Assembly: GCA_001512835.1 (NCBI GenBank)
Contig: LFRQ01000015.1
Coordinates: 1,176 to 65,175 of the forward strand
Length of the DNA stretch: 64,000 nucleotides
DNA from: Clostridia bacterium DTU022
Lineage (GTDB): Bacteria; Bacillota; Dethiobacteria; DTU022
Direction of reading: 5' to 3'
Shown here: one piece after another, positions 6,342 to 27,022 of the stretch
Numbering within the stretch: the first letter of the stretch is position 1
Layout: every line of letters starts with the position of its first letter
Program-made: the position numbers and the translations under genes
The notes under the pieces: model-generated
Told to the model about the DNA's origin: nothing
Database searches by the model: none
The model's input: only the letters and a program-made list of their open reading frames with translations

Positions 6342-6361
6342 TCTTCCTCGCTCCCCATTTT

Positions 6362-7390: not shown

Positions 7391-7497
7391 CTCTGGCTAC
7401 CTCCTGAATCTCCTCGTAATTACTATTGATTGCCCCGGGGATAATTCCCCATGCCCCTCCCCGGGAAGGGCGGGATCCGTCGGCTCCTCTTTTGGGG

Positions 7498-8874
7498 TTA
7501 ATTTCCCTTGGCCCGGCCTCTCCTTTTGCCGTCGCTGACGGCGCCGGGAGAGGCAAGATCCTCCCGGAGATGAGCAGGGATGCAGTCCAGGTTGATCAGG
7601 TCCTGGTACGATTCGCGGCGCACCACCAATTCCGCCTTCCCCCGCCTTAGAAAGACCACCGCCGGCCGGGGGTTGCGGTTGTACTGGCTGTACATGGAAA
7701 AGTGGTACGCCCCAGTGCTGAAGACAAGCAGCAGGTCTCCGGGCGATACCGGGGGAAGAGCCAAATCCCGGATGAGAATATCCCCCGACTCGCAGGCCTT
7801 GCCGGCCACGGTGACGGTTTCCGCGGCCGGATCCCGCGCCCGGTTGGCCAGAACGGCCTCGTAGCGGGCACCGTAAAGGGCCGTGCGCAGGTTATCCATC
7901 ATCCCCCCGTCCACGGAAATATATTTTCGGACCCCGGGAATATCTTTAATCGTCCCCACCGTGTACAGGGTAACCCCCGCTTCCCCCACGATGGAGCGGC
8001 CGGGTTCCAGCATCAGCTTGGGATAGGGATAAGCATGCTCCCTGGCCTTTTCCTTGACGGTGCGCGCCAGGAGCGGCAGCAAGTCGGAGATCCCACAGGG
8101 CTCATCCTCCCCGGTGTAGCGGATGCCCAGGCCGCCCCCCAGGTCCAGCTCCTGCAGGAGCACGCCCGTGGCGGCGCGCACCGACTGCATGAAGTCCATC
8201 ATGGTCTCCGCCGCCAGGCAAAAGGGCTCCGCGGTCATAATCTGGGATCCGATATGGCAATGCAGCCCCCGGAGCACCAGGTTGGGCAGCGCCCGGGCCA
8301 GCTTTATCCCCTCCAGGGCCTGGCCGTCGGAGATGCCCAGGCCGAACTTGGAATCCTCCTGCCCTGTTTGAATATAGTGATGGGTATGGGCGGCGATCCC
8401 CGGCTTTACCCGCAGCAGGATCTCCGCCTGCTTCCCTTGCCTCTCCGCTTCCCGGTTGAGCCTCTCCAGCTCCATGAAACTGTCCACCACGATGCGGCCG
8501 ACGCCAACCTTGACCGCCAGGGCCAGCTCGGCGTCGCTCTTGTTATTGCCGTGGAAATAAACCCGTTCCATGGGAAAGCCGGCCTGGATGGCCGTATAGA
8601 GCTCCCCTCCGGAGACCACATCCAGGGAGAGCCCTTCCTGCTGCAGCAGCCGGCACATGGCCAAGGTCAGGAAGGCTTTGCCGGCATAGATAATCTCCCC
8701 CCGGGGATAGTGGCGGGCCAGCTCCTCCCGGTAAAGGCGGCACTGGGAGCGAATCAGGTCTTCATTGTACACGTAGAGCGGGGTGCCGTACTTTTCCGCC
8801 AGTTCCACCAGGTCCACTCCGGCAATGGTCAGGTGATTTTTGCTGTTAACTTCCATCCAGCTTGGCAGCGGCAC
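7498..8874 (-). CDS. lysA: Diaminopimelate decarboxylase
   Basis: PLP-dependent fold-III decarboxylase motifs (GTPLYVY, HCHIGSQ, GGGLGIRY, CESGD). The ORF-track N-terminal extension to 9048 runs through the riboswitch and terminator, so I reject it. The start is either GTG 8874 (GGGGGGG ribosome binding site) or ATG 8856 (MEVNSKNHL). Confidence 0.85.
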   Translation of the reverse strand: MPLPSWMEVNSKNHLTIAGVDLVELAEKYGTPLYVYNEDLIRSQCRLYREELARHYPRGEIIYAGKAFLTLAMCRLLQQEGLSLDVVSGGELYTAIQAGFPMERVYFHGNNKSDAELALAVKVGVGRIVVDSFMELERLNREAERQGKQAEILLRVKPGIAAHTHHYIQTGQEDSKFGLGISDGQALEGIKLARALPNLVLRGLHCHIGSQIMTAEPFCLAAETMMDFMQSVRAATGVLLQELDLGGGLGIRYTGEDEPCGISDLLPLLARTVKEKAREHAYPYPKLMLEPGRSIVGEAGVTLYTVGTIKDIPGVRKYISVDGGMMDNLRTALYGARYEAVLANRARDPAAETVTVAGKACESGDILIRDLALPPVSPGDLLLVFSTGAYHFSMYSQYNRNPRPAVVFLRRGKAELVVRRESYQDLINLDCIPAHLREDLASPGAVSDGKRRGRAKGN

Positions 8875-8899
8875 TATTCCCCCCCCTTTCCAGATCAAG

Positions 8900-8931
8900 A
8901 AATAAAAAAAGCTAACCCATGAAGAATTAGC
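8900..8931 (-). terminator. Intrinsic terminator of the L-box expression platform
   Basis: Minus RNA GCUAAUUCUUCAUGGGUUAGC hairpin followed by UUUUUUUAUUU. Confidence 0.75.
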
Positions 8932-9165
8932 TACTATCCGAACCGGGATAAGCCCCGCCGCTCCCGTGAGATAGCGCTCCACCGGAAACCGGGCTGTTTC
9001 CGGTGACAGTCTGCCGGCTATTTGCAGGCAGCCCAGCCCCCGGGCCAAGGGAACCCGGAAGCTTCGGCGATAACCCCTTTCACGCCCTTTCCTTGGAGCC
9101 CTTGCTCCTCCCGGCCGCTACTCTTGGTTACCGCACCTCTACCCCACCCTTTTGCGAGATGAGGC
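8932..9165 (-). promoter_or_regulatory. Lysine riboswitch (L-box) controlling lysA-asd-lysC
   Basis: The minus strand carries the L-box hallmarks AGAGGUGCG (plus 9132-9140), CAAGAGUA, GUGAAAGGGG..AUCGCCGAAG, CUGUCA and GGUGGAGCGCUAUCUC (plus 8968-8983). The blocks occur in the same order as in the B. subtilis lysC leader. Confidence 0.8.
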
Positions 9166-9183
9166 TTTATTCAATTTTTTTGT

Positions 9184-9212
9184 ATTGTAACATGAAAGCG
9201 CCGGCGATGCAA
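9184..9212 (-). promoter_or_regulatory. Promoter of the L-box/lysA operon
   Basis: Minus strand reads TTGCAT, a 17-nt spacer, then TACAAT. Confidence 0.65.
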
Positions 9213-9235
9213 TAGCGGCCAAGCCTAAAAAATAT

Positions 9236-9679
9236 TTACTGTTCTTCCGGCACCAGGTCAATAATCACCGGCTTGTAATCATCCCTCTCCTTGACCCGGT
9301 TGTCCCAGCGGCGGAGCCCCCAAAACACCAGCCCCATGAAGCCAAAGCCTACGGCCACGGCCAGCGGTTCCCGGGGTCCGCCCCAGTTAAAGTAAGCGGC
9401 CAGGTTCAACCAGAGCAGGATGCCGGCCACCAGGGCCAGAAGGGGTACCATGTAGAGCATGAAGGAGACAAAGAGCATGCGGCGGTCATCGGCATAAATC
9501 AATACCTTTTGGCCTACTTCCGCGCCAATGGGATTTAAAACCTCCACCAGGTGGTCCCTCTGTTCCGCCTTCCCCAGAAGCCCTCCGCAGCGGCCGCAGT
9601 TTTCACAGGCCACATGCCGGCGCATGCGCACCAGGGCCTTCCCGCCCTTCTTCTCCACTACCGTTCCTACCCGTTCCAT
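9236..9679 (-). CDS. RseC/MucC-family (SoxR-reducing system) membrane protein
   Basis: MERVGTVVEKKGGKALVRMRRHVACENCGRCGG is a Cys-rich N-terminal domain, followed by two TM helices. Start moved to MERV (GGGAGTGGGG ribosome binding site). The upstream promoter has an extended -10 TGCTACATT. Confidence 0.6.
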   Translation of the reverse strand: MERVGTVVEKKGGKALVRMRRHVACENCGRCGGLLGKAEQRDHLVEVLNPIGAEVGQKVLIYADDRRMLFVSFMLYMVPLLALVAGILLWLNLAAYFNWGGPREPLAVAVGFGFMGLVFWGLRRWDNRVKERDDYKPVIIDLVPEEQ

Positions 9680-10070
9680 GGCCCCACTCCCGCGAACCAG
9701 GTTGATCTTAATGTAGCACAACCGCCCGGGGAAGTAAAGAAACGCTCCAGCCTTCCCGGCCCGGTAGGGCCTGTTTCCCGATATCAAATTTACTTGACAA
9801 GCAAATCCTGGAAAAGGCGGCTTCCAAAGAACTTCGTAATGCTCATTATATTCTATAGGCCCCTTTCGGGGCTAATGCCCCCGCTGGAAGATAGGAATTG
9901 CGGAGAAAGGAGCAAGGCGGAAAGAATAGAATAGGGCACCAATTAAATAAAAAAAGGGCCTCTCCTTCTTTAGGCGCGCCCCCGCTTAGCAATATTAAAT
10001 TAATAGGATCCATGCCCTTAATAAAGGATTTACAGCCAGGGCCGGCAAACTCCGGCGGCATAATAATAAA

Positions 10071-10670: not shown

Positions 10671-10872
10671 ATCTCCACCCCCACCAATATTAAGGACCAA
10701 AAAAACCTTCCTCGCCGGGAAGGTACACTGGAACATTATCCATATGGGCTCTGTCCCGGTCCATCCCGGCTCCAAGCAGAGACAACAAAGCTGAAATCAA
10801 ATTAAACGCGTCCTGGGTGTGGCGCCCGCGGGCTGCCGCCCAAAAACATTGTAGCACGAATTTTTGCCAATA

Positions 10873-12795: not shown

Positions 12796-13776
12796 CTACA
12801 GTATGAATTCCTCGGGGTCATTCGGATTGTAACTGGCCAGGAAGGGCTTGGCCTCGGGATCAACGCCGGCTTCATAGCCGTACTTCTCCCGGACTTCTTT
12901 GGCCAGCTTGCGGTTGAGCTTGCCCAGGGGGATATTCATCGGGCAGGCCCGTTCGCACTCACCGCATTCCGCACAGCGCCCGCCCAGGTGAAAAGCTCGG
13001 GCCAGGTGGAAGGCGGTATTCTCCGAAAAATTGACCGCGCGGTTAATCCAGATCGGGTTAAGGCGATCCAGGATACAATCGTCGCAATAACAGAGGGGGC
13101 AGGCGTTGCGGCAGGAGTAGCAGCGAATGCACTTGGAGAACTGCTCCTCCCAGTAATCCCAACGCTCTTCCACGCTCTTCTGCTCCAGCTCCTCCACGCC
13201 CCGGTCGGCCTCCGTCTCCCAGGGCTCCACCGGGTCCCCGATGGTGACATCGCTGAGCACCGGATTGGGATAGCGGCAGAGGCGGCACTTCTCCGCCAGG
13301 ATCTCCTCCCGGGGTATGGTTGCCGTCTCCCCGTTCCTGATAAGCTGGAAGCCGCCTTCCTGCCAGCTCAGCTCTCCCTTCTCCAGCCCTTCGGGGTATT
13401 TCTGCTGGAGCAGATTCAGATCCACTACCCCGCGGCAGGGCAGGCCCACGAGGATTACCTGCTCCCGCTCAATCCCCTTCTCCACCAGCAGCTGGACCAC
13501 CGCCCGGCTGTCGCAGCCTTTAACCAGCAGGGCTACTTTGCGGCGGTCCGGCTCCTCTCCCCGGGGGACCGGGAGCTTCTCCACCAGGGTCAGGTAGGTG
13601 GCCAGGTTGGAGGCGCAGAGGGGCGAGAAAATGAGTTCTTCCGCACCGGCGGCGTCCTGGACAAAGCAAGGCGAGACCCGGTAGCCGAAGCTGCCCGGAC
13701 GCCAGCCGATGAGGTATTTTACATCATCCCGGGAGACAATCTCAGCGGCCGTTTTGCGCAGTTTTTCCAGGTCCAT
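12796..13776 (-). CDS. FlxC-like iron-sulfur protein (FrhB/HydB-like)
   Basis: 326 aa. CIRCYSCRNACPLCYCDDC and CAECGECERACP ferredoxin-type clusters. Confidence 0.6.
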   Translation of the reverse strand: MDLEKLRKTAAEIVSRDDVKYLIGWRPGSFGYRVSPCFVQDAAGAEELIFSPLCASNLATYLTLVEKLPVPRGEEPDRRKVALLVKGCDSRAVVQLLVEKGIEREQVILVGLPCRGVVDLNLLQQKYPEGLEKGELSWQEGGFQLIRNGETATIPREEILAEKCRLCRYPNPVLSDVTIGDPVEPWETEADRGVEELEQKSVEERWDYWEEQFSKCIRCYSCRNACPLCYCDDCILDRLNPIWINRAVNFSENTAFHLARAFHLGGRCAECGECERACPMNIPLGKLNRKLAKEVREKYGYEAGVDPEAKPFLASYNPNDPEEFIL

Positions 13777-13791
13777 TCAGCGATCCCCTCC

Positions 13792-14223
13792 TCACCAGTC
13801 GATCTGGCGCCGCCTGAACCCCTGGAAGGGGCCGGCTTCCCGAGCATCGTCCACCGTCTTCTGCACGACTTCCTTCCACTTGTGTCCCTCCGAGGCGGAA
13901 ACCCAGCTCATATGGAAACGGCGCGGATCAATTCCCACAAATTCCATCAAATCCTTCAACATGCCCAAACGGCGCCGGGCATAGAAATTGCCCTCCATGT
14001 AATGGCAGTCCCCGGGATGGCACCCGGAAACCAGGACCCCGTCGGCCCCCTGCTGTAAGGCGTTCATTACGAAGAGGGGGTTGACCCGTCCCGAGCACAT
14101 TACCCGGATCACGTTGATGTTGGCCGGGTACTGCACCCGGCTGGTCCCGGCCAGGTCGGCGCCGGCATAAGAACACCAGTTGCAAAGAAAAGCGACAATA
14201 TTAGGTTCGAACGATTCGCTCAT
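13792..14223 (-). CDS. mvhD: MvhD/FlxD-like methyl-viologen-reducing hydrogenase delta subunit
   Basis: MSESFEPNIVAFLCNWCSYAGADLAG...CSGR...GCHPGDCHY is the MvhD signature. Its ATG overlaps the hdrA TGA (ATGA). I reject the ORF-track 5' extension. Confidence 0.8.
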   Translation of the reverse strand: MSESFEPNIVAFLCNWCSYAGADLAGTSRVQYPANINVIRVMCSGRVNPLFVMNALQQGADGVLVSGCHPGDCHYMEGNFYARRRLGMLKDLMEFVGIDPRRFHMSWVSASEGHKWKEVVQKTVDDAREAGPFQGFRRRQIDW

Positions 14224-16232
14224 CTCATGACCCCCAATGCCGCAATCTGCGGTAGTATCTGGCGATCCCGGAAAGACTTGGGCTGAATGGAATCGGAGAG
14301 GCAGCCTGCCGAGCAGGAGCCGCACCCTTTGCACAGGGCTTCGTTAACCCGAGCCACCTGTACCGGGTGCCCGAACCGGTTAACGGCAACCAGCTCGATG
14401 GCGCTGTAGGGACAGATCTCCACGCAGAACCCGCAGCCGCGGCAGGTATTTTCGTTTACCGTGGCCACCTGGGCCCCAATCTTCACTTTGCCCCGAGCCA
14501 GGGGAATCATCGCTGAAGAGGCGGCCCCTTTGGCCTGGGCCACCGTATCGGGAATATCCTTGGGGCCCTGGCAGCATCCGGCCAGGAATACCCCGTCGGT
14601 GGCGGTATCTACGGGGCGCAGCTTGGGATGGGCCTCCAGGAAGAAGAGGTCCGGGGACTGGGAGAGGCGCAGCAGGTCGATAATCTTGCGCACATCCTGC
14701 CGCGGCTCCAGGCCCACCGCCAGAACCACCAGGTCCACTTCGTCCTCCATGGGAGTGGCGGTAAGGGTGTCTTCCACCTTGATTACCAGCTTGCTGCCCC
14801 GCTTAAAGATCTCCGAGGGATTGCCGCGGATATAGTGGATCCCTTCCCGGCGGACCCGGTCGTAAAACTCTTCAAAGCCTTTTCCGAAGGCCCGGACATC
14901 CATGTAGTAGACCCGGACGTTGGCGTCGGGTATCTTGTCCTTGACCAGGTGCGCCTGCTTGGCCGTATACATGCAGCAGACCCGGGAGCAGTACTCGTTG
15001 CCCACGCTCTTGTCCCGGGAGCCGACGCACTGGATAAAGGCGATCTCCTTGGGAACGATCTCTTCGTCCTCCACCTTGATCTTGATCTGGCCCCCCGTGG
15101 GACCCGAGGCGGAAACCAGCCGCTCCATCTCCAGGCCGGTAATGACATTGGGATAGTCGGCATAGCCGTACTCCGGCTTTTTCCGGGCTTCAAAGACGTC
15201 GAAGCCGGTAGCCACCACGATGGCGCCTACCTTGAATTCGACGATCTCATCCTGCTGCTCAAAATTAATGGCTCCGGCCCGGCAGACCTCGGCGCATTTC
15301 GGGCCTTTGCCGCACTTGCCCCTGGTTAGGTAGAGGCAGTTTTCCGGGTCAATGGTATACTTGGCCGGCACCGCCTGGGGAAAAGGCAGGTAGATGGCGG
15401 AGCGCTTCCCCATCCCCGCGTCAAATTCGTTGGGGATGCGGTTGGCCATCCGGCAGGCCGCGGCGCACTCGCCGCAGCCGGTACACTTGTCGAAATCCAC
15501 GTAGCGGGCCTTCTTGCGCACCTTGACATCGAAGTTCCCGATATAGCCGCTGACCTCTTCCACTTCGGAATAGGTCATCAGCTGGATGTTGGGATGGCTG
15601 GCCGTATCCACCATTTTAGGGGTAAGGATGCAGGCGGAGCAGTCCAGGGTGGGGAAGGTTTTGTCCAGCTGGGCCATGCGCCCGCCCACCGAAGGAGTCT
15701 TCTCCACCAGGTATACCTTGAAGCCGGCATCGGCGATATCCAGGGCCGCCTGGATGCCGGCGATGCCGCCGCCGATCACCAGGGCGGCCGGTTCGGCATC
15801 CACTTCCCGCTCTTCCAGGGGCTCCAGCTGCCTGACCTTGGCCACGGCCGCCGCCACCAGCCTCCGGGCCTTGGCGGTAGCTTCTTCCCGATCCCCGTGG
15901 ACCCAGGAACAATGCTCCCGGATATTGGCCATCTCCAGGAAAAAGGGGTTAAGGCCGGCTTCCTGCAAGGCTTTCCTGAAAGTCGGCTCGTGCATGCGGG
16001 GAGAGCAGGAGGCCACCACCACCCGGTTCACCCCTTCTTCCTTGATATCATTTTTAATCAGGAGCTGTCCGGGGTCCGAACACATGTAGGCGTAGTTGCG
16101 AGCGACAATCACATTGGGCAAGCCCTTGGCAAACTCGGTGACCGCTTCCACGTCTACCGTGGAGGCGATATTAATGCCGCAGTGACAGATATAGACGCCC
16201 AATTTTGGTTTTTCCGTCATCTGGCTATTCAT
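14220..16232 (-). CDS. hdrA: Heterodisulfide reductase subunit A-like flavoprotein
   Basis: 670 aa. N-terminal CxC and Cys cluster, FAD motif VIGGGIAGIQAAL, and two 4Fe-4S ferredoxin motifs (CTGCGEC, CRGCGFC...CKGCGSC). No internal stop, so this copy has no Sec. Confidence 0.85.
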   Translation of the reverse strand: MNSQMTEKPKLGVYICHCGINIASTVDVEAVTEFAKGLPNVIVARNYAYMCSDPGQLLIKNDIKEEGVNRVVVASCSPRMHEPTFRKALQEAGLNPFFLEMANIREHCSWVHGDREEATAKARRLVAAAVAKVRQLEPLEEREVDAEPAALVIGGGIAGIQAALDIADAGFKVYLVEKTPSVGGRMAQLDKTFPTLDCSACILTPKMVDTASHPNIQLMTYSEVEEVSGYIGNFDVKVRKKARYVDFDKCTGCGECAAACRMANRIPNEFDAGMGKRSAIYLPFPQAVPAKYTIDPENCLYLTRGKCGKGPKCAEVCRAGAINFEQQDEIVEFKVGAIVVATGFDVFEARKKPEYGYADYPNVITGLEMERLVSASGPTGGQIKIKVEDEEIVPKEIAFIQCVGSRDKSVGNEYCSRVCCMYTAKQAHLVKDKIPDANVRVYYMDVRAFGKGFEEFYDRVRREGIHYIRGNPSEIFKRGSKLVIKVEDTLTATPMEDEVDLVVLAVGLEPRQDVRKIIDLLRLSQSPDLFFLEAHPKLRPVDTATDGVFLAGCCQGPKDIPDTVAQAKGAASSAMIPLARGKVKIGAQVATVNENTCRGCGFCVEICPYSAIELVAVNRFGHPVQVARVNEALCKGCGSCSAGCLSDSIQPKSFRDRQILPQIAALGVMR

Positions 16233-16272
16233 CCTCCTACAGAGATTAAACCTTCGGGGCCGCGCGAAGGGT

Positions 16273-17247
16273 TTAGCCTTTCAGCTCCTTCAGCTTCTCC
16301 GTCAGCTTGGGAACGATCTTCAGCAGGTCGTCCACTATCGCATAGTCGGCATGGGCAAAAATGGGAGCTTCAGGGTCCTTGTTGACGGCAACCACCGTTT
16401 TGGCCCCTTTGATTCCAGCCACATGCTGGAAAGCACCGGAAATGCCCAGGGCGATATAGAGCTTGGGCTTAACCGATTTGCCCGATGTGCCCACCTGGCG
16501 GTCGTGGGGCAGCCAGCCGGCATCGACGGCGGCCCGGGAACCGCAGAGGTCGGCCTTGATGGTATTGGCCAGCTCTTCGATGATGGGCAGGTTTTTGTCT
16601 TCCCGCAGGCCGCGCCCGATGGCAACCAGGACCTCGGACTGGGTGATGTCCACATCGCCCACTTCCGCCTCGATATATTCGACAAATTTGCGGTAATCCA
16701 GATCTTCCTTCAACGGGGAGTCGATCTTCTCTATGCTGCCGGCGGCGGAAGGATCCGGCGCTTCAAAGGCGGCCTCCCGGACGGTGACCAGGTAGGTGTC
16801 GGCCGGTTTAAAAGCGATGGTGGCGTTAACCTTGCCGGAATAAAGCTGGCGCGTGGCTTTTAAGACGCCCTCCTCCAGCTTAAGGTCAATTACATCGGCC
16901 ACAAAGGGGAGATCCTTCTCCACCGCCAGGGCGGGAGCCATATCCACCCCCTGGGCGGTGTGACCCACCATGACCAGGGAGGGCTTGCGCTGGTCGATAA
17001 GGGCGGAGAGGACTTTCTGGTATTTGTCCGAGTTGTAATCCGCCAGAAGAGGATCATCCACCACCAGGACTTTCACGCCGTAGCCGGACAACTTCTCCGC
17101 CAGGGCGTCTACGCCGCTGCCCAGGAGAAGGACTTCCACCTCGCCGCCAAAATCCTTGGCCAGGCCGGGGGCCAGGGCCAGCATCTCCAGAGTGATATCT
17201 CTCAAAGCGCCTTGGCGGTGCTCCGCCAGAACGAAAACGTTACCCAT
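16273..17247 (-). CDS. etfA: Electron transfer flavoprotein alpha subunit
   Basis: 324 aa. EtfA FAD-binding C-terminal domain. AAAGGAGG ribosome binding site. Confidence 0.85.
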
Positions 17248-18036
17248 TTACACCAGGCCTCCTTTTACCAGGATAGATGCCAGTTTCTCCGCCTTCTCGT
17301 CGGGTTCGCCCTCGATAATTTCCGCCTTGGAAACAACTTCGGGAATGTAGAGCTTCTCCAGGACGATCTTGGAGGCGGAGACATCGACCTGATCCGCGGC
17401 GATGCCCAGGTCGTCCAGGTTGACCACCTTCAACTCTTTCTTCTGGGCCTCCCGGATACCGCGAATGGGAGCATAGCGGGGCTCGTTGATCCCCGTCTGA
17501 ATGGTGATAACCGCCGGCAGGCTAAGCTCCACTACTTCCATTAAGCCGCCTTCCAGCTCGCGGTGGGCTTTCACCTTGCCGTCGAGAATCTCCAGCTTTT
17601 TCACCATGGCCGCGTGGGAGACGCCCAGCAGCTCCGCCAGGGCCACGCCGGTGGCCATCTGCCCGTCATCGCTGGCCATGCAGCCGGTCAAAACCAGGTC
17701 AAACTCCTGCCCCTTGATTACTCCGGCCAGGGTCCTGGCCACCATCAGGGGATCATAGGCGGCGATCCGCGAATCCTCAACCCGGACGGCGTTGTCCGCC
17801 CCCTTGGCCAGGGCCATGCGGATCATAACCTCGGATTCCTTGGGGCCGATGGAGACAATGGTTACGCTGCCCCCATGGGCTTCCTTAATTAATACCGACT
17901 CCTCCACGGCGTAGTTGTCTGCATCGTTAATATCAAAGGAAAAGCGGCTGCTGTCTACGGAAGTACCATCTGGATTAACCTTAACCTCCGCTTCGGAAGT
18001 ATCGGGCACGTACTTGATGCACACAAAGGTTTTCAT
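17248..18036 (-). CDS. etfB: Electron transfer flavoprotein beta subunit
   Basis: MKTFVCIKYVPD is a canonical EtfB start with an AGGAGGTG ribosome binding site at 9 nt. The ORF-track start four codons upstream is too close to the ribosome binding site. Confidence 0.85.
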   Translation of the reverse strand: MKTFVCIKYVPDTSEAEVKVNPDGTSVDSSRFSFDINDADNYAVEESVLIKEAHGGSVTIVSIGPKESEVMIRMALAKGADNAVRVEDSRIAAYDPLMVARTLAGVIKGQEFDLVLTGCMASDDGQMATGVALAELLGVSHAAMVKKLEILDGKVKAHRELEGGLMEVVELSLPAVITIQTGINEPRYAPIRGIREAQKKELKVVNLDDLGIAADQVDVSASKIVLEKLYIPEVVSKAEIIEGEPDEKAEKLASILVKGGLV

Positions 18037-18066
18037 AAAATCATCCACCTCCTACCAATCTGTTCA

Positions 18067-19215
18067 TCAGGCTAAAAGCTCACCCAACAACTCCGTAATC
18101 TCCGCCACCCGCATCTCTTCTTCGTAGCCCAGCGCCTTCATGGCGTCTTCCAGGGTCAGCACGCAGAAAGGACAAGCCACCGCCACAATCTCCGCTCCCA
18201 TTTCCTTGGCGTCCTTAATGCGGGTTTCGGCCAGGCGCTGGGCCTTGGATTCCGACTCCACCCACATTTTCCCGCCGCCTCCCTCGCAGCAGAGGCTGCG
18301 CTCCCGGGAGCGGTCAAATTCCAGCAACTCCACGCCCTGAATGGATTTCAACAGGCGGCGCGGCTCATCAAATACCAGGCTCTGCTTGCCCAGATAGCAG
18401 GGGTCATGGAAAACAATCTTCTTGGGCAAATCTTGGTTCCAGGAAATTTTCCCCTCTTGCAACAGCTGGTCTAAGAGCTGGGTGTAGTGAAGTACCGGTT
18501 TGTTCAGATCCGGATAGCGGGTCCTAAAGGTGGTAAAACAATGGGGTGAAAGGGTAACCAGTTGCCGGGCCTGGAATTCGTTGAGAAACTCGGTGTTGTC
18601 CTCCACGGTCATCTCGAAGAGGCCTTCCTCTCCCAGGGCGAAGACCTCGCTGCCGCAGCAGGACTCGTTCTCCCCGATAAAGCCGTAATCTACCCCGGCC
18701 TGGTTAAGGATCTTAACCAGGTTTTTGGCAACAATCTGAACCCGGGGGTCGTAGGCGATGGTGCAGCAGACAAAGAATAGATTTTCTACAGGCTGTTCGG
18801 GGTCGGCAATTTTTACCTCCAAACCCTCCATCCAGTCATAGCGGGTTGCCCGCGGCTTCTCCCAGGGATTGCCTTCCCGGAATACGCTCTCCAGGGCATC
18901 CCGGACCGTGGGCTGGGTCTTGCCGCTCTCCACTACCAGGGTGCGCAGGCCGAAAAGAACCTCCAGGGGCTTCAAGCCCTTGGGACAGCGTACCGCACAA
19001 GTATGGCAGGCGGTACAGTCCCAAATCTCTGCCAGCTTGGAGAGTTCCTCCAGCATCTCCTCGTTCTTGGCGTCGTAAACAAAACGGCGCACGTTGAGAT
19101 TAGTCCGTACCGTGACCGGGCAGCCGCCAGTACACCGTCCGCACTGGATACATCCGAACAGGTCCAGTTTTTCAGCAAAGGTCTGGTTTTCGGTACTCAT
19201 CATCATACCCCACAT
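18067..19215 (-). CDS. HdrD/GlcF-family Fe-S oxidoreductase (two 4Fe-4S motifs + two CCG Cys-rich domains; HdrC-HdrB fusion-like)
   Basis: CIQCGRCTGGCP and CTACHTCAVRCP ferredoxin motifs, then the CCG domains (ESCCGSE, CCEGGGG). No TM segment. The start is ambiguous among several ATGs within 19200-19215. Confidence 0.75.
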   Translation of the reverse strand: MWGMMMSTENQTFAEKLDLFGCIQCGRCTGGCPVTVRTNLNVRRFVYDAKNEEMLEELSKLAEIWDCTACHTCAVRCPKGLKPLEVLFGLRTLVVESGKTQPTVRDALESVFREGNPWEKPRATRYDWMEGLEVKIADPEQPVENLFFVCCTIAYDPRVQIVAKNLVKILNQAGVDYGFIGENESCCGSEVFALGEEGLFEMTVEDNTEFLNEFQARQLVTLSPHCFTTFRTRYPDLNKPVLHYTQLLDQLLQEGKISWNQDLPKKIVFHDPCYLGKQSLVFDEPRRLLKSIQGVELLEFDRSRERSLCCEGGGGKMWVESESKAQRLAETRIKDAKEMGAEIVAVACPFCVLTLEDAMKALGYEEEMRVAEITELLGELLA

Positions 19216-20096
19216 CAGAGAATGTTTTTCCCTCGAAACCTAAAAACAGCACCGCCAGGCAAGGTCGAGGAAAAGCAAAAAACCTTTAAACGAACTCATC
19301 CCTCCTTATTGTCTATATTCTTAATCTAAACGATGTTCTATTTAGTGCAAGTAAAAATACAATTTCGACACTTTGTCCTTAATATCCTGCCAAAAATTTA
19401 GGCAGGTCATAATATTTTACCTTGTTAAATATTTTCGCGAATAAAGTGCGCCCGCAGGGTTGGAGCCGGGAAAAAAAGGGGCCGCCGGGAAAATGAAATC
19501 CCGCCCAGGGCCCGCCTCCACCCAGGCGCCCGGACTAAAATAAAATAGGAGAGGGGAAGCGGCCCCCAGCCGGCGCCGGGCCGGAGAGCAGCCCTGGAGA
19601 TATTCTTTATCTTGCCCCATCTCGCCGCCGGCGGCAGGCAGCGGCCATAAATCTCCCGGGCGCCTGGGCCGCTGCCGCGTTGGTGCTGTCCGTGGCCTTT
19701 CCAGGAGGCCGCCCCGACCCTTCCCCTTTCGCCCATGGCTTTGACCGCCCGCCCCGGCAAAAAAGCCCCTGCCGCCCCGGGCCTTTTGCCCGTTCCCCTC
19801 CGGCGGTGGCAAAAATAAAGTTCTTGCCGGTGGGGCCTTCTCCACCACCGCCCGCCTGCGGGCGGCGGAAGGGAGAAAGAAAGGCGCTCCTTGCCGGTTA
19901 GGCCCGGCGAGGGTGCAGGCATGGGATGGTGAACCGCCACGGCCATGAAAAAACGGCCCCTACCGGTTATGCCTATGCCCAGGGTTGTCTCCATATGCCC
20001 GGTTTCTCAATTTAAGGCGGCCAATTCAATAGTAAAATTAAAAATTAAATATGTTATCCGGTTATTTTTTCAGAAAAAAAGGTATTTTTACATGTT

Positions 20097-20121
20097 TGTC
20101 GAATTAAAACTACAGCGACAA
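20097..20121 (+). promoter_or_regulatory. Candidate Spo0A boxes upstream of the spo0E-like gene
   Basis: TGTCGAA at 20097-20103 and its inverse (GCGACAA) at 20115-20121, in an AT-rich stretch 20-40 nt upstream of the start codon. Confidence 0.3.
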
Positions 20122-20139
20122 CCTGATGGGGTGTCACAA

Positions 20140-20304
20140 ATGAATAGGCTCGAAAATCGTCGCCTCATTGAAGAAATAGAGATTCTTCGTGAACAGCTCC
20201 ATCGCTCCTGCGTGAGCAACGGGAAGATGACTCCCAGCGACGACGCTTACCGCATCAGCATTAAACTGGACCAACTCATCCTGGAAATTATGAAAGCAGG
20301 CTAA
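20140..20304 (+). CDS. Spo0E-family sporulation regulatory protein (aspartyl-phosphate phosphatase-like)
   Basis: A 54-aa product, MNRLENRRLIEEIEILREQLHRS...SDDAYRISIKLDQLILEIMK, fits the Spo0E helical-hairpin family pattern. The ORF-track 5' extension through an AT-rich promoter region is rejected. Confidence 0.6.
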   Translation: MNRLENRRLIEEIEILREQLHRSCVSNGKMTPSDDAYRISIKLDQLILEIMKAG

Positions 20305-20307
20305 CCT

Positions 20308-21375
20308 CTAGCCCAGGGATTCCTCAACCCGGATTAAACCTGCCGGACCCTCCACAATGGTGCCGACCAGCCAGCCTTTTACGCCTTCTTCGGCCAGCCG
20401 CTTCTCCATCAACTCCCCCTTGCCCCGCTCCACGGCAATTAAGAGCCCTCCCGAGGTCTGGGGATCCGCCATCAGGAGAAGGGAATCTTCTTCCTGCCCG
20501 CTGCCGGCCCATTCCACGTGGGCACGGTAATATTCCAGGTTCCGGTAAGCGCCGGCGGGGATAAAACCCTGAGCGGCCAACTCCTTCGTTCCGGGGTATA
20601 AGGGGATGTTGCCGTCGCCCAGCCGGGCCGCCGCCCCGCTGGAGAGAAGCAGTTCGCGCAGGTGCCCCAGGAGGCCGAAGCCGGTAACATCGGTGCAGGC
20701 TGTGGCACCGGCGGAAAGAGCCGCCTTGGCGGCGGCGGCATTCAACCGCGCCATGGACTCCAGGGCTTCTTTCACCTCTTCGGGGCTCACGGCTTCTCCC
20801 TTCAGGGCCGTGGTTATAATGCCTGCGCCCAGGGGCTTGGTTAAATAGAGCCGGTCCCCGGGCCGGGCACCGGCAGGGGTCAGCATGCGGCGGGGGTCGA
20901 TAAGCCCGGTCACGGCCAGGCCGTATTTCGGCTCCTTGTCTTCCACACTGTGGCCGCCCACCACCATGGCGCCGGCTTCCCGGACTTTGTCATAGCCCCC
21001 CCGGAGGATGAACTCCAGGGCCTCCTGCAACTCCGGGGAGCCCCCGGCGCAGGGAAAGCAGACAATATTGAGGGCCGTAAGGGGCCTGCCGCCCAGGGCG
21101 TAGATATCGCTGAGGGAGTTGGCGGCGGCGATCTGCCCGAAGAGGTAGGGGTCATCCACCACGGGCGTAAAAAAGTCAACGCTCTGCACCAGGGCCAGCT
21201 CTTCCGTCAGGCGGTATACGGCGGCATCGGCAAATCGATCTTCCCGGTTTAGAAAATGCGGGTCATCGGGCAAAGGCAGCGAGCGCAGAACCTGCGCCAA
21301 GGCCTCGGGGCCTATTTTTGCCGCTCACCCGGCGCTGGCGGTCATCGCCGTCAGGCGAAATTTTTTATCGTTCAC
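20308..21375 (-). CDS. selD: Selenide, water dikinase (selenophosphate synthetase), selenocysteine-containing form with in-frame UGA at plus 21325-21327
   Basis: The ORF-track protein lacks the N-terminus that normally holds the catalytic Cys/Sec. Reading upstream in frame gives VNDKKFRLTAMTASAG-U(TGA)-AAKIGPEALAQVL, which aligns to E. coli SelD ..[25 protein letters not shown]. GTG start at 21375 with an AAGGGGGAAG ribosome binding site. Confidence 0.75.
21283..21324 (-). promoter_or_regulatory. Candidate bacterial SECIS hairpins downstream of the selD UGA
   Basis: GGCCCCGAGGCC sits 12-23 nt downstream of the UGA. GCGCAG-GUU-CUGCGC is a perfect 6-bp stem with G/U in the loop, 27-41 nt downstream. 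Confidence 0.4.
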
Positions 21376-21599
21376 GCCACTTCCCCCTTCTATGCCTAAT
21401 TTCCCCGGCCCCGGTGTCCGCGGAATCCCGGCCGGGACTCCGGCCTCGGGTGTGGATAAAGCCCGGCGCCAAGGCAGGCCTCGGGCCGGCCCGAGCCGGC
21501 TCCGCCCCGGAAGCCCGATAAAGCCCGGCGGCTAACAGCCATCTTCCGGCCACGGGCACCGGCTCCGCCTCAAAATCCGGACAAGCAGGCGGCGGTTCC

Positions 21600-23540
21600 T
21601 TATTCTTCTCCGCCTTTCCCCAGGCCGGCTATCTTCCGGGCTACCCGCTGGTCGCCTACCCGCCGGGTCAAGCCGCGCTGATCGAAGTGCTCCAGCAGGG
21701 GCTGAATAAATTTCCGGGAGCTGCGGGTCAGGTCCCGGAACTGGGCCAGGGTTAGAGTCTCGGCCTTCTCAAAATGGCGACGCAGCAGCTCCACCGCTTC
21801 CCGGTAGGTGTCCCGGTGGAAATAAAGCTCTTCATTAATTTTTTGCAGCAGGCCCTGGCCGGTCAAGTAGCTGAGGTATTCCTCCTGGCGCCCGCTCTCC
21901 ACCCCCGAACGGGCCATGGCTTCCCGAAGGGATGGGGGCTGGAAGCCCCCGCTCCGGTACAGGCCGAGGAGGCGGTCCAGCTTCTCCCGGTCCCCGGCGC
22001 CTGGTTGCGGTTGATAGCCGTGCAGGCTGATCAACTCCCCGCGCACGGCAATCTGCTTCTCCTGCTCCATAATCTCCAGCAAGGCGTCGTACTGGCGCAG
22101 GCTTAAGCTTTCCGGCAGCTCGCCGCGCAATTCCGCCCGGGAAAGCCCGAACATCAGGGGATAGCGGGAATGAAAGCGCCGCAGCCGGGCCAAAATCTTT
22201 TCCCGCCACTCTTCCAGCTGGGCGGCGGCTACGTAGCCGCCGCCCAGCCGGCAAGCCGCTCCCTGGCGAACCAGCTTGGTTAAAATCTCTTCCAACTGGG
22301 CCTCGGATAGGCGGGTAGCCTTGGACAGCTGCGCCAGCCCCGCCCCCGGCAGCGCCTCCAGCTTCTGCCGGACAAAGGCTTCCCCTTCTCCGGAGGCCAG
22401 CTCCTGCTCCAGGGCCTTCAGGTGCCGGACCACCTCCTCCCGGAAGCGGCGGTGCCGGGAAGGAAAGGGATCCAGGATCACTCCCCCGCCGATGGTGGTC
22501 GTGGGGGAGTAGGAGCGGATAATAAAGGGATCCCGGCGCTCTGCTACCAGGGGGCGATCCAGGCGGCACTGCACCGGAGCCGCTTCCCCGGGAAGCAGTT
22601 CCTCCCGGTCCAGGAGAACCAGCCTGGCCACCGCCCGGGCCGTGCCCAGGTAAAAGTGAACGGGATCGAGGTTTTTCAAAGGGCGCGACGCCCGGGGAAG
22701 AAGCTTGAGGGTTGCATCCACCAGCCCGGTAACCCGGTAGTAGCCGGGAGCGCCGACGACGCAGCCGCGCTGGATCTCTTCCTTATCCACGCCGGAAAGG
22801 TTCAGGGCCACCCGCTGGCCGGCCCGGGCCTCCCGGAGATCGCGGCCATGAACCTGGATATTGCGCACCCGGGCCTGCAGCCCCGGGGGGACGATCTCCA
22901 CCGTATCCCCCTGGCGGACGGTACCCTGGAACAGGGTCCCGGTCACCACGGTGCCAAAGCCGGAGATGGTGAAGGAGCGGTCCACGGGGAGGCGGAGGGG
23001 GCCCCGGGGATCCCGGGGGACCACGTCCCTGGTCACGGCATCGATGAGCTCCTTCAGCTCCTCCAGTCCTTCCCCTGTCACCGCGGATACGGCGCAGAGG
23101 GGGGCCTTCTCCAAAAAGGTCCCTTTCAGCTCCTCCCGGATCTCCTCCTGCACCAGCTCCCGCCAGTCCTCTTCCACCAGGTCGACTTTGGTAATAACCA
23201 CGATCCCCTTCTGGACCTGGAGAAGCTCAAGGATATCCAGGTGTTCCCTGGTCTGGGGCATAACCCCCTCGGAGGCGTCCACCACCAGCAGGACCAGGTC
23301 CATGCCCGCCGCCCCGGCCAGCATGTTGTGAATAAAGCGCTCATGGCCGGGAACGTCCACCACTCCCGCCAGGCGCCCGCCGGGGAGGACAAAGGGGGCG
23401 AATCCCAGGTCGATGGAGATGCCCCGCTCTTTCTCTTCCTCCAAGCGGTCGGTATCCACCCCGGTAAGGGCTTTAATAAGAACGGTCTTCCCGTGATCCA
23501 CATGTCCGGCGGTGCCGATAATAATATACTCCGCTTCCAC
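21600..23540 (-). CDS. selB: Selenocysteine-specific elongation factor
   Basis: [15 protein letters not shown]-domain, EF-Tu-like domains 2 and 3, and a long C-terminal winged-helix extension. GTG start with a GGAAGGAGG ribosome binding site at 7 nt. Confidence 0.85.
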
Positions 23541-23573
23541 GAGCAGGCCTCCTTCCCTCAAAGAGCCTCCAGC

Positions 23574-24992
23574 CTAGCGGGCGGCCCGGCTTAGGGCCTC
23601 CAGCAGGCATTTTTCCCGGCTCTCCGGGACAGTCCGCAAGTCAAGGCAGAGGCAGTCCTGGGATATCCGAGCAATAACGGGAGGTTCGCCGCGGCGCAGC
23701 ATCTCCGCCAGGGCGCCGGCGGAGATGCGGTGCGGCTTGATGGCTACCAGGAAGGTGGGGAGCTCCACCAGGGGAAGAGAACCGCCCCCCGCCCGGGAAA
23801 CACCCGGAATCACTTCGATCTCATCCCCGGGCAGGACTTTCTTCAAGCGCCGGGCCAGGGAGGCGGCCCGCCTTTTCAGCGTGCCGGGGTCGGCGCAGAA
23901 AGCGCTCCAGACGGGGAGCTCCCGCAGGGCTTTTTCCGGTTCCAGGTAGAGGCGCAGGGTGGCCTCCAGGGCGGCCACGGTGAGCTTGTCGACCCTGACA
24001 ATCCGGGCCAGCTGGTTGGACCGGATGCGCTCCACCAGGGCGCGGCGCCCCACAATAATCCCGGCCTGGGGACCGCCCAAAAGCTTGTCGCCGCTGAAAG
24101 TAACCAGGTCCGCCCCGGCAGCAATGCTGTCCTGAACCCGGGGCTCGCTGTCGATGCCGAAGGGGGAGAGGTCCAGGAGAACCCCGCTGCCCAGGTCCTC
24201 AATTACCAGCAGCCCGTGGGCCCGGGCCACGGAAACCAGCTCCGCGGTGCTTAAACTGGAGGTGAAGCCCACAATCTGGTAGTTGCTGGTATGGACTTTC
24301 AGAAGGGCGGCGGTAGCTTCGGTAATGGCCTCCTCGTAATCCCGGCGGTGGCACTTGTTGGTGGTCCCCACCTCCACCATGCGGGCTCCGCTGGCGGCCA
24401 TCACTTCGGGAAGGCGGAAAGAGCCGCCGATCTCCACCAGCTGCCCGCGGGAGACGATCACCTCTTTGCCAAAAGCCAGAGCGTGCAGGGACAAAAAGAC
24501 GGCGGCGGCGTTGTTGTTGACCACCAGAGCCGCCTCGGCCCCCGTTAAGCGGCAGAGGAGGCTCTCCAGGTGGGCCTGGCGGGAACCGCGCTCGCCGCTC
24601 TCCAGGTCCATCTCCAGGTTGCAATAGCCGCCGGCAGCCCTGGTCAAGGCCTCCACGGCGGCCCCGGACAGGGGGGCCCGTCCCAGGTTGGTATGTAAGA
24701 TGACTCCGGTAGCATTAATCACCGGGCGCAGGCTGAATTCCGCCTGCCGGCGGGCCCGCCGCGCCGCTTCGGCGGCCAGCTTGCCGGGAGAGAGATCCAG
24801 CTTGGCCAAGTCTTCCGGCAAACGCGGGCTTAGCAGCAGGCTCCGGTAACTCTCCACCGTCTGCCGGGCCGCCTCCAGGAGCGCCTGCCGGGGCAGGGCC
24901 CCTTCCAATTCTTGCAGCGCCGGCTCCCGCAGCAGCCGGTCCACCGCCGGAAGCTCCCGAAGCAAATCCCGTACCTCCGCCACTGGCGTCAC
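23574..24992 (-). CDS. selA: L-seryl-tRNA(Sec) selenium transferase
   Basis: 472 aa. PLP fold with VINATGVILHTNLG and FSGDKLLGGPQAG (Lys). GTG start. Confidence 0.85.
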   Translation of the reverse strand: MTPVAEVRDLLRELPAVDRLLREPALQELEGALPRQALLEAARQTVESYRSLLLSPRLPEDLAKLDLSPGKLAAEAARRARRQAEFSLRPVINATGVILHTNLGRAPLSGAAVEALTRAAGGYCNLEMDLESGERGSRQAHLESLLCRLTGAEAALVVNNNAAAVFLSLHALAFGKEVIVSRGQLVEIGGSFRLPEVMAASGARMVEVGTTNKCHRRDYEEAITEATAALLKVHTSNYQIVGFTSSLSTAELVSVARAHGLLVIEDLGSGVLLDLSPFGIDSEPRVQDSIAAGADLVTFSGDKLLGGPQAGIIVGRRALVERIRSNQLARIVRVDKLTVAALEATLRLYLEPEKALRELPVWSAFCADPGTLKRRAASLARRLKKVLPGDEIEVIPGVSRAGGGSLPLVELPTFLVAIKPHRISAGALAEMLRRGEPPVIARISQDCLCLDLRTVPESREKCLLEALSRAAR

Positions 24993-25016
24993 CCCGTTTC
25001 TCCATCAAACTACCTA

Positions 25017-25046
25017 ATTATAACCATAAAAGCTTTCCCTCTGCAA
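25017..25046 (-). promoter_or_regulatory. Candidate promoter for selA-selB
   Basis: Minus strand reads TTGCAG, a 17-nt spacer, then TTATAAT. Confidence 0.45.
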
Positions 25047-25163
25047 TCTCGGCGGCCCTTTCCCTCTTTCATCACCGGAACACCCCGCCGCCACCGGGCT
25101 CGGGCACCTGCCGTCCCAGGGGGGCCTTTTGGCTTGCGCCCAAAAAATGGGGCGGGGGGATCT

Positions 25164-25194
25164 TTTTTGACGGAATCCGGGGGGAAGGATTATA
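25164..25194 (+). promoter_or_regulatory. Candidate promoter for the CPBP protease gene
   Basis: TTGACG, an 18-nt spacer, then TATAAT on the plus strand. Followed by a near-palindrome TCTATATAGGATATAGAG. Confidence 0.4.
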
Positions 25195-25345
25195 ATGTAA
25201 AAAAGAATTCAAAAGAGATACGTCTATATAGGATATAGAGTGCAATCCTGCTTCGGCACCACCTTGGGGAGAGGCTTGCTCCCGCGCCCGGCAGCAAGCC
25301 GGTGGCTTGACCACCCGGCCGCCAATTTTCGCTGAAAGGAACGCC

Positions 25346-26305
25346 ATGACCGAACTGGAGACCCAACCGGTTGTTAAAAGCCCCCCGGCGCCCACGGCCA
25401 AGTCGGCTACCCGGCTGCTGCTGGTGGTGGTCCTGTTGATGTTTCTCAGTGCCCCGCTCCAGTCCTTGCACTTTGAACTGGGGCTCATCTTGACCCAGGG
25501 GCTCTCCATTCTTCTGCCGGCCCTGCTTTTTTGGTCCTACTACCGGGTGGATCGCGCCTCCTTTGCCCGCCTGAAACCCCTGGAAGGGAGATATCTTCCC
25601 GTTATTATCATGCTGGCCGTTTCCAACTGGGTGCTGCTGCTTTTTCTTAACGGCCTCTTCCACCTCTTCCTCAGCCGCTTCGGCTTTAAAATCGTGGAAC
25701 AGGTGCCTCCTCCGGAAAACTTTTCCCAGCTGCTCTTCTACTACCTGGCCGTTGCCGTAGCGGCGGGCATCTGCGAAGAAATGCTCTTCCGGGGAGCGAT
25801 CATGCCGGCCCTGGAAGAAAACGGGGCCCTGCCGGCGCTGCTTCTCTCTTCCCTGCTCTTTGCCTTTGCCCACATGTCCCTGGTAAACCTGGGCGGCACT
25901 TTTATCCTGGGGCTGCTCATGGCCTTGCTGGTCATCAAAACGGACTCCCTATGGGCGGGAGTGATCTTCCATATTACCAATAATTTTTTATCCTTAAGTT
26001 TTATGTACCTGACCAGCAGGTATAGTTCGGATCTATTTAACTCCTTGCTCAGCATAACCCTTTTCCTGGCCCTTTTTCCCGCGGCGGGCGCCTTTATTTA
26101 CGGGCTCTCCCGGCTGCAGCAGTTGTCAAAAACTCCGCCCCTGCTCCGGGAGTTCCCTCCCCGGTGGCCCCGGGGCTGGTTCAACTGGTCTACGGCCCTA
26201 ATCCTGCTTATTTTCGCGGCAGCGGCCGCCGTAGAGTTGCTAACCGGCTTCGGAATCATAAATCTGGCAATGCTATTAAGCAAAGGGGTTTTGATCCATG
26301 TCTAG
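25346..26305 (+). CDS. CPBP-family intramembrane glutamic endopeptidase (CAAX protease-like)
   Basis: Multi-TM protein with the EEMLFRG, FAFAHM and HITNN motifs. ATG with a GAAAGGAACG ribosome binding site. Confidence 0.75.
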   Translation: MTELETQPVVKSPPAPTAKSATRLLLVVVLLMFLSAPLQSLHFELGLILTQGLSILLPALLFWSYYRVDRASFARLKPLEGRYLPVIIMLAVSNWVLLLFLNGLFHLFLSRFGFKIVEQVPPPENFSQLLFYYLAVAVAAGICEEMLFRGAIMPALEENGALPALLLSSLLFAFAHMSLVNLGGTFILGLLMALLVIKTDSLWAGVIFHITNNFLSLSFMYLTSRYSSDLFNSLLSITLFLALFPAAGAFIYGLSRLQQLSKTPPLLREFPPRWPRGWFNWSTALILLIFAAAAAVELLTGFGIINLAMLLSKGVLIHV

Positions 26306-26750
26306 AATCTCCCCCCCCTCCCTTGAGGGCACTAATAAAAATCGGGGAACAATCTTTCCCTCTCTTTTTAGAACCTCCCCCCTTCCGGCATTCACGGCTA
26401 TCCTGCTGCTCCTGCTTCTTACGGCCGCCTGCCAGGCTCCTCCAAAGCAGTTGGGCAATCCCCAGATCCGGGGAAGGATCGCCGGCCTCTCCAACTCGCA
26501 AAGCGACAGCGACCTCATGGGCTTCCTGCTCATTGAAGGGGAGCCGGAGGAGGACACCGCCTACCAACGGGCTCTGGTTACCGTCCATCGGCAGACGGCC
26601 ATTTACCGCCGGGAAGGGGAGAAGACGGTTAGAACCACCTTTTCCCGGCTGGAAGAGGGCATGACCGTGGAAGTCTGGTTCAGCGGCCCGACAGCGGAGA
26701 GCGACCCGGTGCAGGCCGCTGCCGATACCATCATCGTCATCAGCCCGTAA
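26298..26750 (+). CDS. Putative lipoprotein
   Basis: Signal peptide ending LLLTAAC (lipobox). No recognisable enzymatic motif. Confidence 0.5.
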   Translation: MSRISPPSLEGTNKNRGTIFPSLFRTSPLPAFTAILLLLLLTAACQAPPKQLGNPQIRGRIAGLSNSQSDSDLMGFLLIEGEPEEDTAYQRALVTVHRQTAIYRREGEKTVRTTFSRLEEGMTVEVWFSGPTAESDPVQAAADTIIVISP

Positions 26751-27022
26751 GCCTTTCGAGAGCGCCCGCCAGGATCCCCCGGCCGGGGATTCTCTCCCCT
26801 TTCGCATTCTGCCGCCCCCTGCTCCTCTTTAATATGTTATAAAAAGCTGATAGCCAAAAAGGAAGAAGGCATTACCGGGGTACGCTTAGGCATATATTTA
26901 GAAAAGCATTTCATCTGCTCTTGGTGCTGCTTTTAATTCCGGCAGCGCCGGGCACCGGCGGCCAGGGGGCCGGGGCGGCAAACCGCCCGACCGGAACGGC
27001 CTGGAGCAGGCAGGAGGAAGAG

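Follow-up and report, generated by a model that had tools for sequence, protein, structure and literature searches.

The selD gene of the window (the whole 64-kb stretch of DNA that was analysed) very probably encodes a selenoprotein: the in-frame UGA at codon 17 is predicted to be read as selenocysteine (Sec), and the gene would be a normal Sec-containing selD, our high confidence applying mainly to the selenoprotein call. It appears to be the final member of a selA-selB-selD cluster, and its host would be an uncultured, anaerobic, Bacillota-like bacterium of biogas digesters. Such genes are already known, this one is an ordinary example, and its arrangement is very common. A Sec-containing SelD encoded beside selA and selB is the expected state for a selenocysteine-using anaerobic bacterium of the Bacillota type, and biology gains little from one more example.

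In the bacterial pathway, SelB with GTP and Sec-tRNA(Sec) binds a hairpin and decodes UGA as selenocysteine (PMC13188914, PMC9312934). By analogy with the known family, translation of the window's selD would start at the GTG at 21375 and the UGA at codon 17 would be decoded as selenocysteine. The complex of SelB, Sec-tRNA(Sec) and GTP would be tethered to the mRNA by the stem-loop GGCGCAG-GUU-CUGCGCU, the loop of which starts 33 nt after the UGA, and SelB would hand over the Sec-tRNA when the UGA enters the ribosomal A site. Again as in the known family, SelB would bind this stem-loop (hairpin 2) and not the one that precedes it (hairpin 1), and selC would be located elsewhere in the genome. 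The predicted product, a selenophosphate synthetase of 355 residues, would carry Sec17 and Lys20 in a flexible N-terminal loop. SelD would make the selenophosphate that SelA needs for Sec-tRNA(Sec), and SelD would thus depend on the pathway of its own product.

Reading frame and start of selD

Translation of positions 20308-21375 on the minus strand yields 355 codons with a single internal stop, the TGA at 21327-21325 (Table 1). The N-terminus reads VNDKKFRLTAMTASAG before this TGA and AAKIGPEALAQVL after it, the latter part being also written as AAKIGPEALAQVLRSLP. In the program-made list of open reading frames, selD was instead given as 20308..21300 (-), a product of 330 aa with a TTG start, from which the first 25 residues are missing. 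The preliminary description had held that the listed SelD lacks its N-terminal catalytic segment, that reading upstream in the same frame crosses one TGA, and that a GTG at 21375 with a ribosome binding site supplies the start; all three statements were borne out, the AGGGGG at 21388-21383 lying ahead of the GTG at a spacing of 7 nt. Start codons in relatives are found 13-17 codons ahead of the Sec codon.

Table 1. Positions of the features discussed in the text, numbered along the window
Feature	Position	Strand	Remarks
Full-length selD CDS	20308..21375	(-)	355 codons including Sec17, and TAG stop; selenide, water dikinase
Ribosome binding site AGGGGG	21383..21388	(-)	7 nt upstream of GTG
GTG start codon	21373..21375	(-)	First in-frame start after the ribosome binding site
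In-frame UGA, predicted to be read as selenocysteine	21325..21327	(-)	Residue 17, catalytic position
AAA codon (Lys20 of the G-U/C-x-x-K loop)	21316..21318	(-)	Alignment to 3U0O and 2YYE
Hairpin 1, AGGCC-CCGA-GGCCU	21300..21313	(-)	11 nt after UGA
Hairpin 2, predicted SECIS, GGCGCAG-GUU-CUGCGCU	21282..21298	(-)	7-bp stem, loop GUU (21291-21289)
selB, selenocysteine-specific elongation factor	21600..23561	(-)	TIGR00475, 377 bits vs cut-off 242, full model
selA, L-seryl-tRNA(Sec) selenium transferase	23574..24992	(-)	TIGR00474, 597 bits vs cut-off 268, full model
HdrD-like Fe-S/CCG protein	18067-19215	(-)	Cluster downstream of selD
ETF beta	17248-18048	(-)	Cluster downstream of selD
ETF alpha	16273-17247	(-)	Cluster downstream of selD
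HdrA-like flavoprotein	14223-16280	(-)	Cluster downstream of selD
MvhD/FlpD	13795-14343	(-)	Cluster downstream of selD
FrhB-like Fe-S protein	12799-13776	(-)	Cluster downstream of selD

If the TGA were a true stop, translation from TTG 21300 would give a 330-residue SelD without the Sec/Cys17-Lys20 loop. This reading agrees with the list of open reading frames and with the public gene calls examined for the window's selD, all of which are the 330-aa form starting at TTG 21300, but it is highly improbable on several counts. No ribosome binding site is properly placed for the TTG, which has just a GAGG at a distance of 2 nt on its upstream side. The peptide encoded by the 16 codons ahead of the TGA is conserved across phyla and fits the SelD HMM beginning with position 1 of the model, and a stop at the TGA would leave the covarying hairpin described below without a role. 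The downstream starts called in homologs fall at differing, non-homologous positions and are therefore gene-caller artefacts; initiation downstream of the TGA had been considered as a possible objection in the preliminary description, and no conserved start of that kind exists among the homologs. Mutagenesis of E. coli SelD indicates that loss of Cys/Sec17 and Lys20 should leave the protein inactive, which also counts against the downstream start.

Identity of the SelD protein

Profile searches were run with Cys substituted at the TGA. The extended protein scored 367.1 bits against TIGR00476 (SelD; equivalog cut-off 125) with residues 7-317 covered, and 312.6 bits against NF002098 (cut-off 299). 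Residue 7 aligns to position 1 of the TIGR00476 profile, so that the extended N-terminus lines up with the SelD family as had been anticipated. The SelD structures matched in the PDB (2YYE and 3U0O) gave E-values of 1e-70 to 1e-72. The 330-aa product itself and P0001, a 99%-identical protein, both have entries for the AIRS and AIRS_C domains (PF00586 and PF02769), and the nearest SelD relatives outside this 99%-identity cluster share only 65-66% identity. Judged by its sequence, the product is a genuine SelD, in agreement with the family in every respect that could be tested.

The alignment to E. coli SelD (3U0O) is ungapped through the N-terminal loop, from residue 3 of both proteins, and places SAG-U17-AAK20 of the window opposite GAG-C17-GCK20 of E. 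coli, such that U17 corresponds to Cys17 and K20 to Lys20. The position of U at E. coli Cys17, as originally proposed, is thus upheld. The two proteins share the fold family and the length, whereas E. coli selD has a Cys codon, no UGA and no SECIS. The best match among solved structures is SelD of Aquifex aeolicus (2YYE/2ZOD; E = 7.5e-72), in which SSGCAAKVGP aligns to SAG-U-AAKIGP. The crystallised Aquifex chain has Cys at the position of the window's Sec17; the natural protein is presumably a selenoprotein that was crystallised as a Sec-to-Cys mutant.

State of the catalytic codon across SelD loci

To place the window among its relatives, 80 SelD loci were fetched; they come from species-representative genomes and from its two closest relatives (65-66% identity). 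The homologous codon was located by a conserved-motif script in 73 of them, and the window's own locus brings the set to 74. At the catalytic position, TGA is found in 63 of the 74 loci (window included) and TGC or TGT in the other 11. The TGA state spans many phyla and includes the closest relatives, L082 and L083, as well as all of the Moorellaceae, Neomoorella, Desulfovirgula and Sporotomaculum selD loci that were fetched. The GxxK motif is present in all loci compared. The flanking peptide is conserved on both sides of the TGA, and the peptide that precedes it (RLTxMxxxAG) is conserved in frame across phyla; between the window and its nearest relatives it is kept via synonymous changes (CGC, AGG or CGG for Arg and CTG or TTG for Leu).

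The presence of Sec in SelD is textbook knowledge and is listed for Moorella, Syntrophomonas, Carboxydothermus, Clostridium and many Deltaproteobacteria (PMC1794560, PMC13188914), with Haemophilus influenzae, Moorella thermoacetica, Syntrophomonas wolfei, Carboxydothermus hydrogenoformans and Clostridium spp. among the examples (PMC1794560, PMC4561486). Among bacterial selenoprotein families, FdhA and SelD rank as the two most widespread, with SelD in second place (PMC1794560, PMC13188914), and in one survey Sec was encoded by 19% of prokaryotic SelD genes (PMC4561486). The window's gene resembles the known bacterial Sec-containing forms in its UGA codon, its G-U-x-x-K loop, its downstream stem-loop within the coding region and its linkage to selA and selB. 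It shows no difference in kind from them; its genes are ordered selA-selB-selD, and a Spo0E-like gene on the opposite strand comes next.

A selD pseudogene, or an assembly error at the TGA, would also account for an interrupted frame, since one base change (TGC or TGT to TGA) suffices to turn a Cys codon into this stop by a nonsense mutation, and no selC was seen in the 64-kb window. We regard this explanation as extremely improbable, because TGA is the majority state of the codon, the remainder of selD is intact and conserved, selA and selB are intact, and a hairpin that fits the SECIS model is present here and absent from the Cys forms. The sequence is moreover shared by six assemblies, made independently from different samples: a stretch of 159 nt that takes in the ribosome binding site, the GTG, the TGA and both hairpins shows no difference from the window in any of the six, and five of them match the window over the entire selD gene. 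This identity excludes an assembly error.

Occurrence in public assemblies and shortened annotation

The exact 330-aa product occurs in 59 blocks of a public contig collection (24 contigs read), including the metagenome-assembled genome GCA_023622885.1 and the WGS set LFRM01, and its sources are anaerobic-digester and biogas metagenomes. Most of the best 120 SelD homologs are shortened to about 287-330 aa, and in a large protein database most close homologs are likewise 287-330 aa long, with a minority of 343-349 aa that carry Cys. The length of 287-330 aa is the signature of gene callers stopping at the TGA, and the N-terminal shortening of SelD calls is a systematic misannotation at the Sec codon. 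Calls shortened in this way lose the Sec17/Lys20 catalytic loop and hide the organism's use of selenocysteine. Annotation is the one field in which the gene has a practical consequence. The corrected selD marks this biogas-reactor organism as selenium-dependent, a property that may, as a general matter, bear on trace-element dosing in digesters.

One low-coverage contig of the same organism (L081; ENA ERZ2647954, NODE_654, coverage about 1x) shows, at 6349-9701, a 272-aa fragment of selA and a selB in two pieces (161 and 459 aa). Both genes are intact in the window, and the breaks in L081 are probably assembly frameshifts.

The predicted SECIS element

The mRNA downstream of the UGA can form two hairpins, both of which are present in the MFE and centroid folds. 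The sequence GCGCAG-GUU-CUGCGC begins 27 nt after the UGA and is preceded by GGCCCCGAGGCC, and the presence of these two stem-loops, reported in the preliminary description, was confirmed in the sequence and in the folds. Hairpin 2, the longer form of the first of them, is encoded by codons A27-Q28-V29-L30-R31 and lies at a UGA-to-loop distance of 33 nt. An outer stem in the MFE fold, in which GCGGC just after the UGA pairs with GCUGC, was set aside, as it would be inside the ribosome during UGA decoding.

The bacterial SECIS model (bSECISearch of Zhang and Gladyshev; PMC13188914, Fig. 2) specifies an apical loop of 3-9 nt and an upper stem of 4-16 bp. It further specifies that position 1 or 2 of the loop be a G, usually with G or U after it, and sets a spacing of 16-37 nt between UGA and loop and a free energy of -7.5 kcal/mol or lower (PMC13188914). 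These constraints were re-implemented from the published model for uninterrupted stems only. Hairpin 2 agrees with four of four constraints (loop GUU, 7 bp, spacing 33 nt, dG -9.6 kcal/mol); the G and U at the start of its loop are like the bSECISearch consensus, and its spacing is near the upper limit. The recovery of hairpin 2 by the re-implemented model removes the objection, raised beforehand, that no SECIS-like structure might be found. Hairpin 1 fails two constraints, its loop CCGA lacking a G at either of its two leading positions and its dG being -7.0 kcal/mol. The preliminary description had put forward both hairpins as SECIS candidates; the one with the GUU loop stands, as it passes the model, is conserved and covaries, and the other falls on the loop-G rule. 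We consider it likely that hairpin 2 is the SECIS of the window's selD, and hairpin 1 is probably not its SelB-binding element.

Neither z-score from folding the single sequence is significant (66 nt following the UGA, -0.44; 171 nt, -0.29). Thermodynamics alone therefore cannot support a SECIS, and comparative tests were used. In this window of 61% GC, some hairpin that passes the model follows 9.9% of the TGA triplets (n = 1303), and 4.7% of the same triplets precede a model-fitting hairpin at least as stable as hairpin 2. Taken alone, the predicted hairpin 2 is weak evidence, and it is the comparative data, drawn from aligned genes, that exceed chance. Rfam gave no SECIS or tRNA-Sec match, either in the whole window at the gathering threshold or in 19000-27000 at E <= 10; for the SECIS this null result is uninformative, because Rfam reported nothing for this bacterial coding-region element.

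Conservation and covariation of the hairpins

A hairpin that fits the SECIS model was found in 44 of the 63 Sec-type genes and in none of the 11 Cys-type genes (Fisher p = 1.3e-5). These hairpins fall into two positional classes, one with a spacing of about 33 nt, as in the window, and the other with a spacing of 16-22 nt. At the exact columns of the window's hairpin 2, all seven pairs can form in 26 of the 63 Sec-type genes, 25 of which have a GUN loop, and none of the 11 Cys-type genes exceeds five of seven pairs.

Covariation was measured in an ungapped and unselected alignment of 61 Sec-type selD genes covering the UGA and 63 nt (alignment A2). The two-hairpin covariation score was 0.253, compared with a mean of 0.157 for shuffled alignments, none of 500 shuffles reaching the observed value, and with 0.117-0.158 for slid controls. 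Six of the seven pairs of hairpin 2 change on both sides; pair 33-43, for example, is GC in 15 sequences, CG in 8, UA in 7 and AU in 3. A further alignment (A3) was chosen for intact pairing, and its figure of 93% paired is thus circular and not independent evidence. A covariance model was built without the window, from 25 other genomes, and run on both strands of the 64 kb. It returned one strong match, at 21304-21276 (-), with 36.1 bits and E = 7.7e-9, a score to which homologous coding sequence contributes part; the runner-up reached 18.4 bits and was without the stem core.

The only live rival to the preferred reading is that Sec is inserted at the UGA with hairpin 1 (21300-21313) as the functional SECIS, or with both hairpins acting together. 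Hairpin 1 appears in the MFE and centroid folds, many homologs carry both hairpins, and 19 of the 63 Sec-type homologs have their model-fitting hairpin at the early position (16-22 nt). The latter include the close relative L082, in which hairpin 2 is weak and hairpin 1 strong. We nevertheless judge such a role unlikely in the window, given that the CCGA loop has no early G and the stability of -7.0 kcal/mol is too low for the model, that the register of hairpin 1 varies among homologs, the region adopting two different pairing registers, and that its columns in A2 are 59% paired versus 68% for hairpin 2. From the footprint of the ribosome on mRNA, some or all of a hairpin that starts 11 nt after the UGA would be melted with the UGA in the A site. 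Hairpin 2 is thus retained here as the likely SECIS.

Pairing between codons 27 and 31

In Sec-type selD genes (A2 columns 31-45, corresponding to 21297-21283 of the window), codon 31 varies in its first base together with the third, synonymous base of the Ala27 codon. The combinations are GCG with CGN (Arg) in 10 genes, GCU with AGY (Ser) in four, GCC with GGN (Gly) in three and GCA with UGC (Cys) in two. These two bases form a pair, so that the identity of residue 31 follows a synonymous site, and the SECIS stem appears to choose the amino acid there.

A broader proposal would take the recoding signal of selD as a conserved two-hairpin module, in which hairpin 2 (GUN loop, 33 nt) would bind SelB, hairpin 1 would serve as an accessory for spacing or pausing, and the RNA would dictate protein sequence. 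We hold this proposal to be quite unlikely. If true, the module would be a clean natural case of a coding-region RNA structure selecting an amino acid. An RNA-dictated residue 31 would be a matter of the whole family and not specific to the window, and it is probably implicit in earlier SECIS surveys.

selA, selB and the search for selC

The two genes directly upstream of selD on the same strand had been named selA and selB in the preliminary description, an assignment that holds, as both score above the curated NCBIfam equivalog cut-offs (Table 1). In five loci (L085-L089) whose selD is identical to that of the window, the selB call at the corresponding position is annotated with the winged-helix domains by which SelB binds the SECIS (PF09106 and PF09107). 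ARAGORN and Rfam found no selC (tRNA-Sec) in the 64-kb window, a result that has no bearing on the remainder of the genome. ARAGORN moreover detected no tRNA gene of any kind, either here or in nine related loci scanned over their full length. When every in-frame TGA junction of the window was screened by codon usage for other selenoprotein genes, only ordinary gene boundaries emerged.

The spacer between selB and selD (21376-21599) is GC-rich and 224 nt long. It contains a 14-nt exact direct repeat, GATAAAGCCCGGCG, at 21455-21468 and 21517-21530, and a 26-nt imperfect repeat at 21496-21521 and 21559-21584. In both cases 62-63 nt separate the copies, a spacing suggestive of a small tandem duplication or a pair of binding sites. 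When the spacer was tested for a structured RNA or selC, it gave a fold z of -0.16 and no Rfam match, the short direct repeats being its only feature, and a scan for promoters and terminators gave no decisive signal.

Gene neighbourhood

A Spo0E-like gene (PF09388; 19945-20304, plus strand) faces selD tail to tail, its end lying 4 nt from the selD stop. This convergent arrangement is conserved in L081-L083 and L085-L089. The synteny common to the nearest relatives consists of selA and/or selB, selD, the opposite-strand Spo0E-like gene, an HdrD-like gene and ETF genes.

Downstream of selD lies a gene cluster on the minus strand (12799-19215). Its selD-proximal order is kept in L082 and L083, both of which have the HdrD-like gene and ETF beta, followed in L083 by ETF alpha and the flavoprotein. 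Members of the HdrA and MvhD/FrhD (FlpD) families are often selenoproteins elsewhere. The HdrA-like and MvhD/FlpD genes of the window have uninterrupted frames with no in-frame TGA and are thus Cys forms.

Two Rfam matches were found further along the minus strand. A lysine riboswitch aptamer at 8964-9149 (-) matches the full-length model RF00168 with 118 bits (gathering score 30), and a pan motif at 10747-10842 (-) is a borderline match to RF01749 with 38.5 bits (gathering score 36.2).
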